A DNA stretch of 5,061 nt from a virus (taxonomy: Duplodnaviria > Heunggongvirae > Uroviricota > Caudoviricetes), in the IMG/VR virus record IMGVR_UViG_2585427729_000001, positions 1-5,061 of that record; one strand, 5' to 3'. The notes under the pieces were generated by a model. That model did not search any database. It saw only the letters and a list, made by a program, of their open reading frames with translations, and was not told the DNA's origin. Below are positions 1 through 5,061 of the stretch, in pieces; within the stretch, counting starts at the first letter, position 1, and each line of letters begins with the position of its first letter. Made by a program: the position numbers and the translations under genes.

Positions 1-40
1 TGTCAAGTTTCCCCAAAGTTATTCAAAAAGTCAATATTAT
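1..40 (-). promoter_or_regulatory. Late promoter pR' (-35 and -10 hexamers) with the start of the Q-utilisation (qut) region; transcript start lies at or beyond the window edge
   Basis: Read on the minus strand just downstream of the Q stop: TTGACT (plus 29..34), a 17-nt spacer TTTTGAATAACTTTGGG, then GAAACT (plus 6..11). The layout matches my recollection of lambda pR' (TTGACT, 17 nt, TAAATT), with a weaker -10 here. The position immediately 3' of Q is where pR'/qut lies in lambdoid phages. Confidence 0.6.
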
Positions 41-76
41 GCCGTTAATATGTTGCCATCCGTGGCAATCATGGCG

Positions 77-700
77 CTAACGTGTGATCGCATTCAAAAT
101 GTTGTCTGCGATTGACTCTTCCTTGTGGCATTGCACAACCAGAGCGTCATACAGCGGCTTAACAGTGCGTGACCAGGTGGGTTGGGTAAGGTTTGGGATT
201 AGCATCGTCACAGCGCGATATGCGGCGCTTGCTGGCATTCTTGAATAACCGACGCCTTTACATCTTCCGCACTCTTTCTCAGCAACTATCCCCCACTGCT
301 CTGTTTTGGCTATATCAACCGCACGGCCTGTACCGTGGCAATCTCTGCATCTTGCGCCCGGCGTCGCGGCACTACGGCAATAATCCGCATAAGCGAATGT
401 TGCGAGCACTTGCAGTACCTTTGCCTTAGTATTTCCTTCAAGCTTTGCCACGCCACGGTATTTCCCCGATACCTTGTGTGCAAATTGCATCAGATAGTTG
501 ATAGCCTTTTGTTTGTCGTTCTGGCTGAGTTCGTGCTTACCGCAGAATGCAGCCATTCCGAATCCGGCTTGTGATTGCGCCATCCCCATAGCAGCCATCA
601 CATCAGTACCGGAAAGAGAGTCAGAAGCCGTGGCCCGTGGTGAGTCGCTCATCATCGGGCTTTTTGGCGAATGAAATTTAGCTACGCTTTCGAGTCTCAT
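77..700 (-). CDS. Q: Late-gene antitermination protein Q, lambda-type, 207 aa
   Basis: The track ORF 77..733 has an N-terminal extension; the likely true start is the ATG at 700 (MRLESVAKFHSPKSP...), preceded by GAGGGGAAG. The protein matches lambda Q nearly residue for residue as I recall it, including the Cys cluster CRDCHGTG...CGRCKGVG (zinc finger). The stop lies directly upstream of the pR'-like promoter. Confidence 0.93.
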   Translation of the reverse strand: MRLESVAKFHSPKSPMMSDSPRATASDSLSGTDVMAAMGMAQSQAGFGMAAFCGKHELSQNDKQKAINYLMQFAHKVSGKYRGVAKLEGNTKAKVLQVLATFAYADYCRSAATPGARCRDCHGTGRAVDIAKTEQWGIVAEKECGRCKGVGYSRMPASAAYRAVTMLIPNLTQPTWSRTVKPLYDALVVQCHKEESIADNILNAITR

Positions 701-711
701 CGTCTTCCCCT

Positions 712-846
712 CTATCCTTTGCAATGACACCACACTTCAAACATTCGTTTCACAACCTCACGACAGTAGAAGCCGTAAGCATCGCGGGTAAGATCGTAGC
801 GATTGCCATAACGCTGGCGCATATATCGTTCGAATGCTTTGTTCAT
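712..846 (-). CDS. Small hypothetical protein, 44 aa, YlcG-like by position (between rusA and Q); not in the supplied ORF track
   Basis: Hand translation of the minus strand from ATG at 846..844 gives MNKAFERYMRQRYGNRYDLTRDAYGFYCREVVKRMFEVWCHCKG, ending at TAG 714..712. The start overlaps the rusA stop as ATGA, GGAGAA lies a few nt upstream, and the stop is 11 nt before the Q start. Basic, with a C-x12-C-x-C cluster. The position matches the small ylcG ORF between rusA and Q in DLP12-type prophages. Confidence 0.6.
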   Translation of the reverse strand: MNKAFERYMRQRYGNRYDLTRDAYGFYCREVVKRMFEVWCHCKG

Positions 847-1205
847 GTGTTCTCCAGTTCGGTGATTTTTATTCCAAGCCTTCCGCCTGGTACTTTCACA
901 CCACGAATTACGCGAATGTCATCGAATTGCTCGTCGTCTTCCGCAAATCCGGCGTGGATAAGGGAGTCGAGTAAACCTTTCAGGATGTTGTCGAGGTCGC
1001 GGCGGCGGGAGTCTGGAACGTCTGCGATGACTTTGATACGGAGTCGTGATTTGGTGAAAATGTCTAACTTGAGTTGGCGAATGATTTGCTGAACGTCTTT
1101 TCGGTATTTCTGGCCTTTATCGCTGATGTAGTATTGGCCTCCCCGTCTTCGCCAGTAGGTATTCACCGACGGCGGGTATGGAAGCACAAACTGATATTCG
1201 TTCAT
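843..1205 (-). CDS. rusA: RusA-family Holliday junction resolvase (crossover junction endodeoxyribonuclease), 120 aa
   Basis: Protein MNEYQFVLPYPPSVNTYWRRRGG...DVPDSRRRDLDNILKGLLD...GGRLGIKITELENT shares the hallmark RusA motifs with E. coli RusA as recalled (LP-PPS-N-Y-R, PD-RRRDLDN acidic catalytic region, GGRL...ITE) and the same 120-aa length. The start overlaps the ybcO-like stop as ATGA; GGAGGGG lies upstream. Confidence 0.92.
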   Translation of the reverse strand: MNEYQFVLPYPPSVNTYWRRRGGQYYISDKGQKYRKDVQQIIRQLKLDIFTKSRLRIKVIADVPDSRRRDLDNILKGLLDSLIHAGFAEDDEQFDDIRVIRGVKVPGGRLGIKITELENT

Positions 1206-1492
1206 GGCTTAATCTTCCCCTCCTTCAGCAGTATCGCCTGCGTCCTGATCACGCCTTCGAGGTGGTAAAGTCTGGCGTCTTTGTTGTCGAGGTTATGGGT
1301 GCGTCGGTCGATTTCATCGTGACACGCGCTACAAGCCCATGCGCCGATCAGGTCGTCAGGCTTCATTCCCGTTCCGCAAATTCCAGCCATCCGGTAATGT
1401 GCCAGAACTGTAGTTTCAGGGTTGCCATTGCATACGCCGTAAATACGTACCTGGCATTCTCTGCCGCGAGCTTCTTTGCGTAGGTTAGCCAT
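1202..1492 (-). CDS. ybcO: YbcO-like DUF1364-family protein, putative Zn-binding nuclease, 96 aa
   Basis: Protein MANLRKEARGRECQVRIYGVCNGNPETTVLAH...CSACHDEIDRR... has the same length and Cys/His pattern as the DLP12 prophage YbcO that sits immediately upstream of rusA. RBS GGGGAGG lies about 8 nt upstream; TAATG overlap with the preceding gene. Confidence 0.85.
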   Translation of the reverse strand: MANLRKEARGRECQVRIYGVCNGNPETTVLAHYRMAGICGTGMKPDDLIGAWACSACHDEIDRRTHNLDNKDARLYHLEGVIRTQAILLKEGKIKP

Positions 1493-2214
1493 TAAGCAGC
1501 CTCCCCTGTTACTTTCAGCATTCCGTTATCGAGCAGCTTTCTGGTCAGCCACTGTTGACCACACCCGGTGATTTTTGTGGTGAACGATATCTGTATTCCG
1601 TGATTTGTGTTGACCGCTGTTTCTTTCACTGTGAAATAGCCGCGATCCATATATTCCTGCATTGGCACATTGCGCCGGGAACCTGAAGCAATAAGGATTT
1701 TGTGATCGCGCATCCACGCAAACAGTTTGTTTGGACCAATTCCAACAACCTTTGCAAAGTTTCCAATCAAAATTCCGCTGGCCTCGCCAACGCGATCGGC
1801 AAACTCAACTTTAGGTGCGGCAATTGCTAGCTGGTTTTCCAGTTGCATTTTCTGCTCAGCAAGGTCAGCAGCAAGGCGCAACGCTTCTGGTAGCGTTTTT
1901 GGGATATTAACCGCAGCTTCTTCAAGCTCTCGCCAACGGTCAACAAGGCGAGCCGTGAATTCCGGCGACAACTGGGCTACAACGACAATACTGTCTCGCT
2001 TTCCTTGTTCGCCTTCGAATACATACACACAAAAACTTTGATTTAAGCCTAACCCATTGATTCTTCCACAATCCTCAATTTGAGGAAGCCGGATAACACC
2101 ATTTTTAGCCAGCGTTTCGATGGTACGTTTCACATTGTCATGACGCTTACCAACCAACTCAGCGATTTCAATGCTTGTCATTTTTATGGCATTGCCATTT
2201 ATTAACTCATTCAT
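1492..2214 (-). CDS. Phage regulatory protein of the Rha/antirepressor family (N-terminal Rha-like DNA-binding domain plus C-terminal KilA-C/Ant-like domain); Roi-like, 240 aa
   Basis: The N-terminus MNELINGNAIKMTSIEIAELVGKRHDNVKRTIETL is the characteristic Rha-domain signature. The C-terminal half (...FADRVGEASGILIGNFAKVVGIGPNKLFAWMRDHKIL...) resembles antirepressor KilA-C domains. RBS GAGGAAG precedes the ATG; the start overlaps the upstream small ORF by 8 nt. Confidence 0.85.
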   Translation of the reverse strand: MNELINGNAIKMTSIEIAELVGKRHDNVKRTIETLAKNGVIRLPQIEDCGRINGLGLNQSFCVYVFEGEQGKRDSIVVVAQLSPEFTARLVDRWRELEEAAVNIPKTLPEALRLAADLAEQKMQLENQLAIAAPKVEFADRVGEASGILIGNFAKVVGIGPNKLFAWMRDHKILIASGSRRNVPMQEYMDRGYFTVKETAVNTNHGIQISFTTKITGCGQQWLTRKLLDNGMLKVTGEAA

Positions 2215-2383
2215 CGTCTTCTTCCTCGTACATTGAGCTATTCGGATCGCTCATCAGCTCTGCGCAGCAATCGGAGCACACGTGAACTTCCAGCACATGC
2301 AGCTTCTGACCGCAGTTAGCGCACGTTAAAGCTCGCTCGACGCTTTCTTTCTGGTATTGAAGGGTTTGGGATGGGCTAAGCAT
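2207..2383 (-). CDS. ninF: NinF-like small Cys-rich protein, 58 aa; not in the supplied ORF track
   Basis: Hand translation from ATG 2383..2381 gives [58 protein letters not shown], ending at TGA 2209..2207. It has a CxxC...CxxCC putative zinc-binding motif and an acidic tail. GGAGA lies upstream. Size and position (after ninE/ninX, as in the P22 order ninE-ninX-ninF) fit NinF; I also recall lambda NinF as very similar. Confidence 0.7.
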   Translation of the reverse strand: MLSPSQTLQYQKESVERALTCANCGQKLHVLEVHVCSDCCAELMSDPNSSMYEEEDDE

Positions 2384-2733
2384 TATTGGATTCTCCGCAT
2401 CATGAGAAAGACAATCATGGCGGCACGGAGTGGATTGTCATATGCGACACCAACATTCGGTCCGGCATCATCAAACAAGTCCCTTGCGTTGTCTGTGGCG
2501 CACGGCATTGAGGGATTGTCTAAAATTATGCTGATGTTGTTTTCAGTGATAATCGGCCATGCGTCTGCTGGGTTATTGCAGTAGTCGTACCATCGATAAT
2601 TGCCATTTGCTTCATTGCCAACAGACCGTCCATCTGCGTTGTGCGGATAACCTAATGGTTTTGCCCCAACTATCGCTTTAAATACTCGCTTGTTAATTTC
2701 AAAATCACTTAACTGTGAATAATCCATTGTCAT
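2383..2733 (-). CDS. Hypothetical phage protein, about 116 aa, NinX-like by synteny; function unknown
   Basis: ORF in the track as 2383..2769. The probable start is ATG 2733 (ATGA overlap with the ninE stop) or ATG 2727 (better spacing from GAGG). Protein [60 protein letters not shown]... has no motif I can assign to a known enzymatic function. It sits between ninE and the NinF-like gene, where P22-type phages carry ninX. Confidence 0.75.
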
Positions 2734-2906
2734 TTCCTCGCACGATGTCTTAGCCACCGGATATCCCACAGGTGAGCCGTGTAATTGAAGGTTTTTACGT
2801 CAGATTCTTTTGGGATTGGCTTGCGTTTATTTCTGGAGCGTTTCGTTGGAAGGTATTTGCAGTTTTCGCAGATGATGTCGGTGATACTTCGTCGTTGTCG
2901 CCTCAT
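2730..2906 (-). CDS. ninE: NinE, 58 aa, function unknown
   Basis: The track ORF 2730..2996 is over-extended. The true start is likely ATG 2906 ([58 protein letters not shown]), with AGGAGGG 5 nt upstream and an ATGA overlap with the methyltransferase stop. The sequence closely matches lambda NinE as recalled. Confidence 0.85.
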
Positions 2907-3430
2907 GCCGCCCTCCTGACGCCCTGCCCGATCGCCATCAATGCCGCTTTGGATACGGTAGTAAACATCCGTCGAGGACTGATGAACGGTCGCCAAATCA
3001 GCAGCATGGAGCCTTTGCTGTTTCCCTTCTTCTCCAGCCCTGTCGATGGTTCGATAAAATTAATCCGTCCATCAGTGATAATGCGAACTTCGTCGACACT
3101 CTCCAGAGCCTTGCTGAACCATCCGACAGACATATCCTCTGGCACAAGCATCACTACCGTCTGTCGTTGTTGTATGCACTGCTCAGCGGCTTTTTCCACC
3201 CACGGCCTGATATTGCTGTACGGTGGGTTATTCCAGATTGCACCGTGGCTTATCCACTCAGAATTTAGCGCGTCGTCAGCCTCAGTTAGCCAGTGAGCGC
3301 ACAGAGCATTTTTGTCGCTCGCTGCCGAATCCAGCCAGAATCCAAACTCAATATCCAGTGCATCAAAAAGCCAGAGCGGCGTTTGCCAGCAGTCCTTGTC
3401 GTGTGATGGCGTATTTGATTTGATAGTCAT
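2903..3430 (-). CDS. dam: Phage Dam-family DNA N6-adenine methyltransferase, small orphan methyltransferase of about 175 aa
   Basis: Track ORF 2903..3490; the probable start is ATG 3430 ([26 protein letters not shown]...), overlapping the ninB stop as ATGA. It contains the NPPY catalytic motif (IWNNPPYSN) and the N-terminal D-x-W-x-TP signature typical of the phage Dam family. No restriction endonuclease gene is adjacent. Confidence 0.88.
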
Positions 3431-3867
3431 GCAGCCCGATCTCCCCATCGCGCTTTCCATTCGAGAGCCAGTCGCGCTTCGTCTGACCACTTAACGCCAC
3501 GCTCTGTACCGAATGCCTGTATAAGCTCTAATAGCTCCGCAAATTCGCTTACACGCATCCTGCTGGTTGACTGGCCTATTACCACAAAGCCATTCCCGGC
3601 AAGGTTAGGAACAACGTCCTGCTGCTTTAATGCTGCTGTAAAAACGCACTTCCAGCTTTCTGCATCCAGCCAGCGACCATGCCATTCAACCTGACGAGAG
3701 ACGTCACCAAGGCAAGCCCAAAGCTTTCGATTCTGGTCTAAGCTGCGGTTGCGTTCCTGAATGGTTACTACGATTGGTTTGGTTGGGTCTGGAAGAATTT
3801 GCTGTACCGCGTGAATAGCGTTTTGCTGATGTGCTGGAGATCGAATTTCAAAGGTTAGTTTTTTCAT
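3427..3867 (-). CDS. ninB: NinB (lambda Orf), recombination mediator, 146 aa
   Basis: The track ORF 3427..3885 starts at a TTG. The real start is probably ATG 3867 (MKKLTFEIRSPAHQQNAIHAVQQILPDPTKP...), with GGAGAGGGAAG upstream. It matches lambda NinB/Orf as recalled. Confidence 0.9.
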   Translation of the reverse strand: MKKLTFEIRSPAHQQNAIHAVQQILPDPTKPIVVTIQERNRSLDQNRKLWACLGDVSRQVEWHGRWLDAESWKCVFTAALKQQDVVPNLAGNGFVVIGQSTSRMRVSEFAELLELIQAFGTERGVKWSDEARLALEWKARWGDRAA

Positions 3868-3884
3868 GACTTCCCTCTCCCCCA

Positions 3885-3916
3885 AATAAAAAGGCCTGCG
3901 ATTACCAGCAGGCCTG
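3885..3916 (-). terminator. Intrinsic (rho-independent) terminator between ren and ninB, lambda tR2-like
   Basis: The minus-strand RNA would read ...CAGGCCUGC-ugguaauc-GCAGGCCUG followed by UUUUUAUUUGGGGG. The stem is plus 3892..3899 paired with 3908..3915, with an 8-nt loop and a U-tract 3' on the minus-sense transcript. It lies in the only sizeable intergenic gap (3868..3940). On the plus strand no T-tract follows, so it is unidirectional. Confidence 0.75.
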
Positions 3917-3940
3917 TTATTAGCTCAGTGATGTAGATGG

Positions 3941-4231
3941 TCATCTTTTAACTCCATATACCGCCAATACCCGTTTCATCGCGGCACTCTGGCGACACTC
4001 CTTAAAAATCAGGTTCGTGCTCACCTTTCCTTCCCGTTCTTCTCTGGTAGCGAACCGGTAATACACCGTTCGCCAGACCTTACCTTCGATAACCAGAAGA
4101 CCTGCCCGTGCCATTTTAGCCGCGGCCTGATTTATGCTGGTTACTGTTGCGCCTGTTAGCGCGGAAACGTCCTGTGCACAGAAGCTCTTATGCGTTCCGA
4201 GGTAATGAATAATTGCCTCTTTGCCCGTCAT
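3941..4231 (-). CDS. ren: Ren protein, 96 aa
   Basis: Protein MTGKEAIIHYLGTHKSFCAQDVSALTGATVTSINQAAAKMARAGLLVIEGKVWRTVYYRFATREEREGK... matches lambda Ren as recalled in length and sequence. ATGA overlap with the P stop. Confidence 0.9.
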   Translation of the reverse strand: MTGKEAIIHYLGTHKSFCAQDVSALTGATVTSINQAAAKMARAGLLVIEGKVWRTVYYRFATREEREGKVSTNLIFKECRQSAAMKRVLAVYGVKR

Positions 4232-4929
4232 ACACTTGCTCCTTTCAGTCCGAACTTAGCTTTAATTTCTGCGATCTTCGCCAGAGCCTGTGCTCGATTT
4301 AGAGGTCTGCCGCCCATGACAGGAAGTTGTTTTACTGGTTCAGGTATAGTCTCACCACAGTTAATTCGCGCTGTCATACAGGTCAGCTCATCGGCAGCCT
4401 TACGCCGTAATTCCGCGTCAGTCAGCGCATTGGCCCGCATGTTCTGGTACAGGTTGGTAACCAGCCAGTAGTGCGCGTTTGATTTCCACGGATAAGACTC
4501 TGCATCTGGATACAGGCCACGCTTCCGGCAATACTCGTAAACCATATCAACCAGCTCGCTGGCGTTTGGCAGTCCGGCAATAACAGATGCTTCTTCACGA
4601 CACCAGGCAACAAACTGCCCGGGTGATGGCAGGAATGGTCGATTCTGCCGACGGGCTACGCGCATTCCTGCGTTAACCTGTTCCATCGTGGTGATCCCGT
4701 TTTCCCGGAAAGCCAGAACCCACTGGCGGCGGATTTCGTTCAGTTCGTTCTGGTCACGGTTAGCCAGGCTCGCCGGGAAAGTTGCCAGTAACTGGCTGAA
4801 CACACCGTTGATGATCTGCGCTACCTGCTGTACCTGCGGCTTTTCGTCGTACTGTTCCGGCATGTTGTTGGCGATCCGACGCATCTGCTCACGGTCAAAG
4901 TTAACCATCTGTGCGGCGATGTTTTTCAT
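4228..4929 (-). CDS. P: Replication protein P (helicase loader), 233 aa
   Basis: Protein MKNIAAQMVNFDREQMRRIANNMPEQYDEKPQVQQVAQIINGVF... matches lambda P as recalled, full length 233 aa. The start overlaps the O stop as ATGA. Confidence 0.93.
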   Translation of the reverse strand: MKNIAAQMVNFDREQMRRIANNMPEQYDEKPQVQQVAQIINGVFSQLLATFPASLANRDQNELNEIRRQWVLAFRENGITTMEQVNAGMRVARRQNRPFLPSPGQFVAWCREEASVIAGLPNASELVDMVYEYCRKRGLYPDAESYPWKSNAHYWLVTNLYQNMRANALTDAELRRKAADELTCMTARINCGETIPEPVKQLPVMGGRPLNRAQALAKIAEIKAKFGLKGASV

Positions 4930-5061
4930 AAATCCACCCCGTAAATCCAGTCTGTGTTTGTCAAGTCGAGTTTTGGTTTGCTGGCTGTCACGACTGCCTG
5001 TTGCTTGTTACGGTTGATTTCGAGCTGGGTCCACTTGTCGCGGAGTTTGGCCGGGCTCAGC
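4926..5061 (-). CDS. O: Replication initiator O, C-terminal fragment only (5' end lies beyond the window)
   Basis: The minus-strand frame ending at TGA 4928..4926 translates as ...LSPAKLRDKWTQLEINRNKQQAVVTASKPKLDLTNTDWIYGVDL, matching the C-terminus of lambda O as recalled (the P-interacting domain). It runs off the right edge of the window. Confidence 0.85.
   Translation of the reverse strand, partial: LSPAKLRDKWTQLEINRNKQQAVVTASKPKLDLTNTDWIYGVDL

Follow-up and report, generated by a model that had tools for sequence, protein, structure and literature searches.

Does a reading frame of only 44 codons, wedged between two genes of a lambda-like prophage, encode a protein that works in its own right, or does it serve the gene which follows it? 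The question is raised by a stretch of DNA from a virus of the Caudoviricetes (IMG/VR record IMGVR_UViG_2585427729_000001, positions 1 to 5,061), referred to below as the window, by which the whole 5,061 nucleotides (nt) analysed are meant. Here an open reading frame (ORF) on the minus strand at 712-846 lies between rusA, a gene for a Holliday-junction resolvase, and the gene for the antiterminator Q, a position from which the initial annotation proposed either an influence on Q expression or a separate small regulator or metal-binding peptide. We regard it as fairly probable (roughly 0.7) that the ORF is an autonomous small protein gene, which travels as a portable cassette and acts in trans, and that its effect on Q would be generic coupling only.

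The length of the ORF is uninformative by itself, since the window contains 65 ORFs of at least 25 amino acids (aa). Conservation of the frame across relatives, proposed in the initial annotation as a check, spoke for a real gene: the 44-codon frame is open, without interruption, in each of the 41 distinct DNA variants taken from 101 retrieved loci. Of 461 viral hits, the 80 most similar to the query were retrieved for this set, and owing to this ranking the proportions of genomic contexts given below are approximate. Variable sites number 26, 21 and 42 of 44 at the first, second and third codon position, respectively, the mean proportion of nonsynonymous differences (pN) is 0.11 versus 0.64 for synonymous ones (pS), the median ratio of nonsynonymous to synonymous substitution (dN/dS) is 0.10, and synonymous sites are saturated between contexts. 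Stops interrupt the remaining sense frames in nearly all 41 variants, and each antisense frame is closed in at least 11 of them, up to all 41. Judged from this comparison of variants, the ORF is a protein-coding gene under purifying selection.

The gene is already known as an annotated small prophage gene. The claim that it had been missed by the ORF track holds for the first-stage track only; RefSeq annotates the exact coding sequence as WP_001030161.1, a hypothetical protein, in Escherichia coli E2348/69 and in strain 19KM2326N. Positions 600-1300 of the window are 100% identical to the E2348/69 prophage, a lambda-like prophage adjoining ybhC in 19KM2326N matches the full window at 99.9% identity, and the exact 44-aa protein is present on 260 public contigs. 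Over its full length (residues 1-44, against profile positions 1-44 of 48) it matches the profile of PHROG 3871 at E 2.3e-30; neither Pfam nor NCBIfam yielded a family for it. Homologues form 84 clusters at 90% identity in Enterobacterales (Escherichia, Salmonella, Klebsiella, Citrobacter, Pantoea, Serratia and other genera), and 861 of 5426 complete E. coli genomes carry them, under the name 'hypothetical protein' in every row listed. A profile search of 1.84 billion proteins gave only 29 representatives at 50% identity. Apart from short members of the family it turned up two repeat proteins, both spurious, and a fusion with the excisionase Xis, with no characterised domain linked. On these searches, the family is a narrow one, belonging to prophages of Enterobacterales.

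Members with a name include STM0895.1n of Fels-1, ORF3 of BP-4795 and WP_000556583.1 of E. coli O157:H7, which share with the window ORF 70-86% aa identity, the same 44-residue core and the same predicted helix-hairpin-helix. The difference lies in their place: whereas these three are found directly upstream of the excisionase and integrase genes (xis-int), where the leftward early operon ends, the window ORF stands between rusA and Q in the rightward operon. Many family members also carry a C-terminal tail of 3-6 residues, which the window copy lacks. Two oddities of the homologue set may be mentioned here. The 90%-identity cluster that holds the 44-aa protein (window 715-846, minus strand) is represented by an 80-aa DUF4222 protein, the usual upstream neighbour in the xis context, with no apparent similarity to the 44-aa protein, so that this joint cluster looks like a clustering artefact. 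Homologues of 75% identity also occur in records labelled Chryseobacterium sp. 18061 (locus L015, 3001-3147) and Elizabethkingia phage EKP1 (OM284015.1); the neighbours in these Bacteroidota-labelled records are Enterobacterales-like, and the labels probably reflect contamination or mislabelling rather than cross-phylum transfer.

The genes of the window are all encoded on the minus strand, and the features around the ORF are arranged as follows:

712..846, minus strand: 44-codon small protein gene of the PHROG 3871 family (RefSeq WP_001030161.1), stop codon TAG at 714-712
852..855, minus strand: Shine-Dalgarno (SD) sequence GGAG of the small gene, separated from the ATG by 5 nt and lying within the 3' end of rusA
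843..1205, minus strand: rusA, Holliday-junction resolvase (PF05866), whose TGA overlaps the ATG of the small gene
701..711, minus strand: 11-nt spacer from the stop of the small gene to the ATG of Q, a remnant of the 3' end of ninH
77..700, minus strand: Q antiterminator, 207 aa (PF03589), start ATG at 700

Much of what the initial annotation had described is seen in this layout: a basic 44-aa peptide (MNKAFERYMRQRYGNRYDLTRDAYGFYCREVVKRMFEVWCHCKG; isoelectric point 9.45, net charge about +4.6) encoded directly before Q, the ATGA overlap with the rusA stop at 846-843 (ATG of the ORF 846-844, TGA of rusA 845-843) and the sequence resembling a ribosome-binding site, GGAG at 855-852. Its cysteine pattern, given as Cys-x12-Cys-x-Cys-His-Cys, was miscounted, and the sequence reads C28-x11-C40-H41-C42, that is three Cys and one His. 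The ORF lies on the delayed-early rightward (pR-equivalent) transcript, and its translation is most probably coupled to that of rusA, given the ATGA start/stop overlap together with an SD sequence of its own. On the downstream side, the SD sequence of Q (GAGGGG, 712-707) is made up of spacer bases and the final G of the small-gene stop.

What else can occupy this position is instructive. In the prophage DLP12 of E. coli K-12, ylcG is found in the same place, with a 4-nt overlap with the rusA stop, and is followed by the Q-family gene quuD. The uncharacterised YlcG (46 aa) resembles the window ORF in position, packing and approximate size, but the two proteins give no BLASTP alignment at E<=100; the comparison with ylcG suggested by the initial annotation thus holds for the slot, which is common, and homology is rejected in favour of a positional analogue. 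In hundreds of E. coli genomes and in the phages HK620, HK75 and mEp235, a near-identical rusA is followed by ninH. The flanks of these ninH-bearing relatives (rusA and Q) are about 97-98% identical to the window and include the same ribosome-binding site of Q as well as an identical spacer at 701-711. Aligned with a ninH relative, the window is identical in its flanks up to the common ATGAAC start, and identity returns at AGAGGGGAAGAC, just before the ATG of Q, a stretch which is the 3' end of ninH and carries the SD sequence of Q. As far as such alignments go, the exchange of the ORF and ninH is a clean cassette swap. NinH was also considered as a homologue and rejected, as BLASTP finds no alignment. 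Because the ORF, ninH and ylcG are unrelated and yet take the same position, the rusA-Q slot is a mosaic one, with at least three unrelated small genes. We therefore picture the ORF as filling this variable slot between the resolvase gene and Q as a portable cassette of 44 conserved codons, which would be an autonomous, translated gene. Elsewhere in the window, NinE and NinF are separated by a NinX-family gene (2383-2727, minus strand), which strain 19KM2326N shares and the E2348/69 prophage lacks; the window therefore does not derive from E2348/69 itself, and the position of this gene is another mosaic slot in the nin region.

The mobility of the cassette goes well beyond this slot. In 71 of the 101 loci, and in about 12 of 15 species-level loci, xis-int follows directly downstream of the ORF; examples are Fels-1 STM0895.1n, BP-4795 ORF3, phage CharmingMan and the O157:H7 prophage at mlrA. 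The downstream excisionase belongs to at least four families (DUF1233, Exc PF07825, phrog_2917 and the AlpA-like HTH_17/phrog_66), and the upstream neighbour in this context varies as well (DUF4222, a Cys-rich Fels-1 protein, a protein with a LexA DNA-binding domain, and others). The order rusA-ORF-Q was found in 17 of the 101 loci, a Serratia locus has the order NinG-ORF-Q-like and an Intestinirhabdus locus phrog_22211-ORF-Q-like. Four types of antiterminator follow the ORF in the rusA, NinG and phrog_22211 contexts: the PF03589 Q of the window, a PF03589 Q of 44% identity, a phrog_753 Q-like gene whose start overlaps the ORF stop as TGATG, and a PF06530 Q. The ORF accordingly does not co-vary with any particular Q. 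The placement beside Q is old, since Q-adjacent ORFs are spread over three genera at 73-80% aa identity. The ORF has its own SD sequence in every context, its stop lies in or beside the SD sequence of the next gene, and the tail behind G44, which measures 0-6 residues, is junction sequence. A second copy of the ORF beside xis was looked for in the E2348/69 prophage and none was found. An observation in its own right concerns the 204-aa protein encoded at the Q position before the lysis genes in three loci (L029 3144-3758, L013 3144-3758 and L108 1644-2258): it matches phrog_753 (Q-like), has no Pfam family and is hypothetical in RefSeq, and it appears to represent an under-annotated antiterminator family.

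The product is predicted to be a folded, basic mini-protein of 5.6 kDa. Eight residues (Y17, D18, L19, D22, V32, R34, M35 and W39) are invariant in an alignment of 43 sequences, and the AlphaFold2 model (mean per-residue confidence, pLDDT, 89.8) consists of two helices, at 3-13 and 30-43, with a hairpin loop between them that bears the invariant YDL..D motif. No solved or predicted structure of known function was found to resemble this model. Such a protein would most probably act in trans, by binding a macromolecular partner, and would not depend on a Cys/His metal site.

Could the ORF instead matter through its translation alone? Termination-reinitiation is established in tightly coupled operons, and coupling of this kind from the ORF to Q is plausible, because the TAG overlaps the GAGGGG sequence and the AUG of Q lies 11 nt downstream. 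The proposal that translation of the ORF may influence Q is acceptable to this extent, as generic coupling of the sort to be expected from any upstream gene packed this tightly, ninH included. A role specific to Q is unlikely in view of the four Q types, the commoner adjacency to xis and the occurrence of ninH before the same Q and SD sequence. Nor does the ORF keep to one downstream gene, as would be expected of a leader peptide of Q: behind it stand four types of Q and excisionases of at least four families. No mRNA structure that would couple it to the downstream start stood out: folding of the RNA around the ORF and the Q start gave a minimum free energy of -27.6 kcal/mol versus a mean of -27.7 for shuffled sequences (z = 0.04), with the SD sequence of Q unpaired in the predicted fold. 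Scans of the region gave no Rfam match, and on the coding strand neither a promoter nor a terminator.

A broader form of this idea survives best among the alternatives, although we consider it unlikely. According to it, the ORF is a cis-acting upstream ORF, whose translation or nascent peptide sets initiation on whichever gene comes next, Q or xis, possibly by stalling on the conserved C-terminal REVVKRMFEVW segment, and in this way tunes the timing of lysis or excision. Its appeal lies in the geometry: the ORF is always within about 30 nt of the next gene or overlaps it, its stop sits in or next to the downstream SD sequence everywhere, as it does here before Q, and while the flanks vary it still adjoins xis or Q, two dosage-sensitive regulators. 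However, conservation extends over all 44 residues, including the invariant Y17, D18, L19 and D22, and the model is a confidently folded one. The distance from the core to the stop varies (tails of 0, 3, 4 or 6 residues), which speaks against a position-critical stall, the ORF exists in an in-frame fusion with Xis, ninH can stand in for it before the same Q, the SD sequence of Q is unpaired, and the region folds no better than shuffled sequence.

Less probable is a mini-protein which binds zinc or another metal through its Cys/His cluster, as the initial annotation had suggested. A 44-residue peptide with three Cys and one His, part of them in a C-H-C triplet close to the C-terminus, does invite this reading, and most close homologues keep these residues. 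The candidate ligands nevertheless are among the less conserved positions, in a protein in which eight other residues are invariant: C28 is retained in 34 of the 43 sequences, C40 in 34, H41 in 30 and C42 in 39, with replacements that include F, Y, A, S, R, E and P. The distant members P0130, P0143 and P0147 and the fusion P0150 retain one or none of these Cys. In the predicted model, a single 14-residue helix has C28 at one end and the pair C40/C42 at the other, a distance of about 18 A by helix geometry, which would make chelation of a single ion by a monomer implausible, and no zinc-finger family is matched. The lack of Cys/His conservation largely rules out a conserved metal-binding peptide.

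That the frame is a chance ORF or non-coding spacer, conserved for a DNA or RNA function or for an antisense gene, has practically no chance of being right and is ruled out by the substitution pattern, since the shortness of the ORF, the missing Pfam and NCBIfam family and the overlap with a 122-aa antisense ORF are outweighed by the dN/dS of 0.10 with saturated synonymous sites, by the stops in the other sense and antisense frames and by the want of any Rfam match, stable structure, coding-strand promoter or terminator. The antisense ORF itself (724-1092, plus strand) spans rusA and the small gene and stays open in two related loci as well (L029 and L032); probably it represents no more than a shadow ORF of rusA, which is highly conserved.

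If the ORF thus encodes a small protein acting in trans, which partner might it have? The leading idea, though a weak guess, is an association with excision. Two 90% identical proteins, P0150 and P0153, consist of the ORF domain joined by a short linker to a DUF1233 excisionase, and one locus (L105, 3962-4336) carries the corresponding 124-codon in-frame fusion in the usual place of ORF and xis, directly before the integrase gene. Linkage to excisionase genes is thus seen both in the 71 of 101 loci and in the DUF1233 fusion, and it is facultative. A further hint comes from the slot-mate: lambda NinH is small and basic like the product of the window ORF and is expressed from the nin region, and it has been described as a Fis mimic (a Fis-like DNA-bending protein), for which a role in excision/integration was proposed (PMC7166090). 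Such an influence fits the main habitat of the ORF family beside xis. The likeness does not extend to the fold: NinH is a dimer with a Fis-type helix-turn-helix, and the model of the ORF product, a helix-hairpin-helix, matches no helix-turn-helix family. Taken together, the fusion, the slot shared with NinH and the dominant adjacency to xis make the machinery of site-specific recombination and excision (Xis or the nucleoprotein complex at att) our best guess for the partner, a tentative one which we would not put near even odds. Less likely still, and only slightly ahead of control in cis, is the more specific proposal that the 44-residue module is an accessory factor, which partners physically with the product of the next gene downstream and modulates the directionality or timing of excision.

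Several points weigh against the small protein acting in trans, and against its excision role in particular. Translation, action in trans and the partner are inferred; what has been shown is the gene model, purifying selection, the mobility of the cassette and the poor conservation of the Cys. Literature searches with the gene name, accessions and peptide strings found no paper on the protein, and with no functionally known relative in sequence or structure the partner is a guess. The fusion is rare, confined to one cluster and to three Logan-assembled contigs only. Among phage records, 153 have a DUF1233-type Xis and only 44 the ORF; 933W, for example, possesses Xis and is not among the 40 of the 44 ORF-bearing records that were listed. 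The ORF is hence dispensable for Xis function. In the prophage that matches the window most closely over its full length, Xis is of the lambda type and a small gene unrelated to the ORF stands before it, and the link to Xis could also reflect exchange of the int-xis module at a junction just downstream of the ORF.

Taken alone, the ORF is of little importance, being an annotated, uncharacterised gene at a position of the nin region whose mosaic character is well known. What stands of its earlier interpretation is a genuine gene tightly packed before Q; the analogy with ylcG is corrected to a common slot with unrelated proteins, and the ideas of metal binding and of a Q-specific leader are removed. 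Of modest value, too, is the observation that family members stand next to xis or Q in nearly all cases and that a fusion to an excisionase has arisen once. Should the accessory-factor proposal be true, the partner would be Xis in most prophages, now and then as part of one fused protein, and in the rusA/NinG context it would be Q or recombination complexes; the ORF would then be a non-homologous functional counterpart of NinH, the Fis mimic which it replaced. The placement beside xis or Q, together with the fusion, provides a hypothesis that can be tested on a small protein known as well from the Shiga-toxin prophages of E. coli O157:H7.
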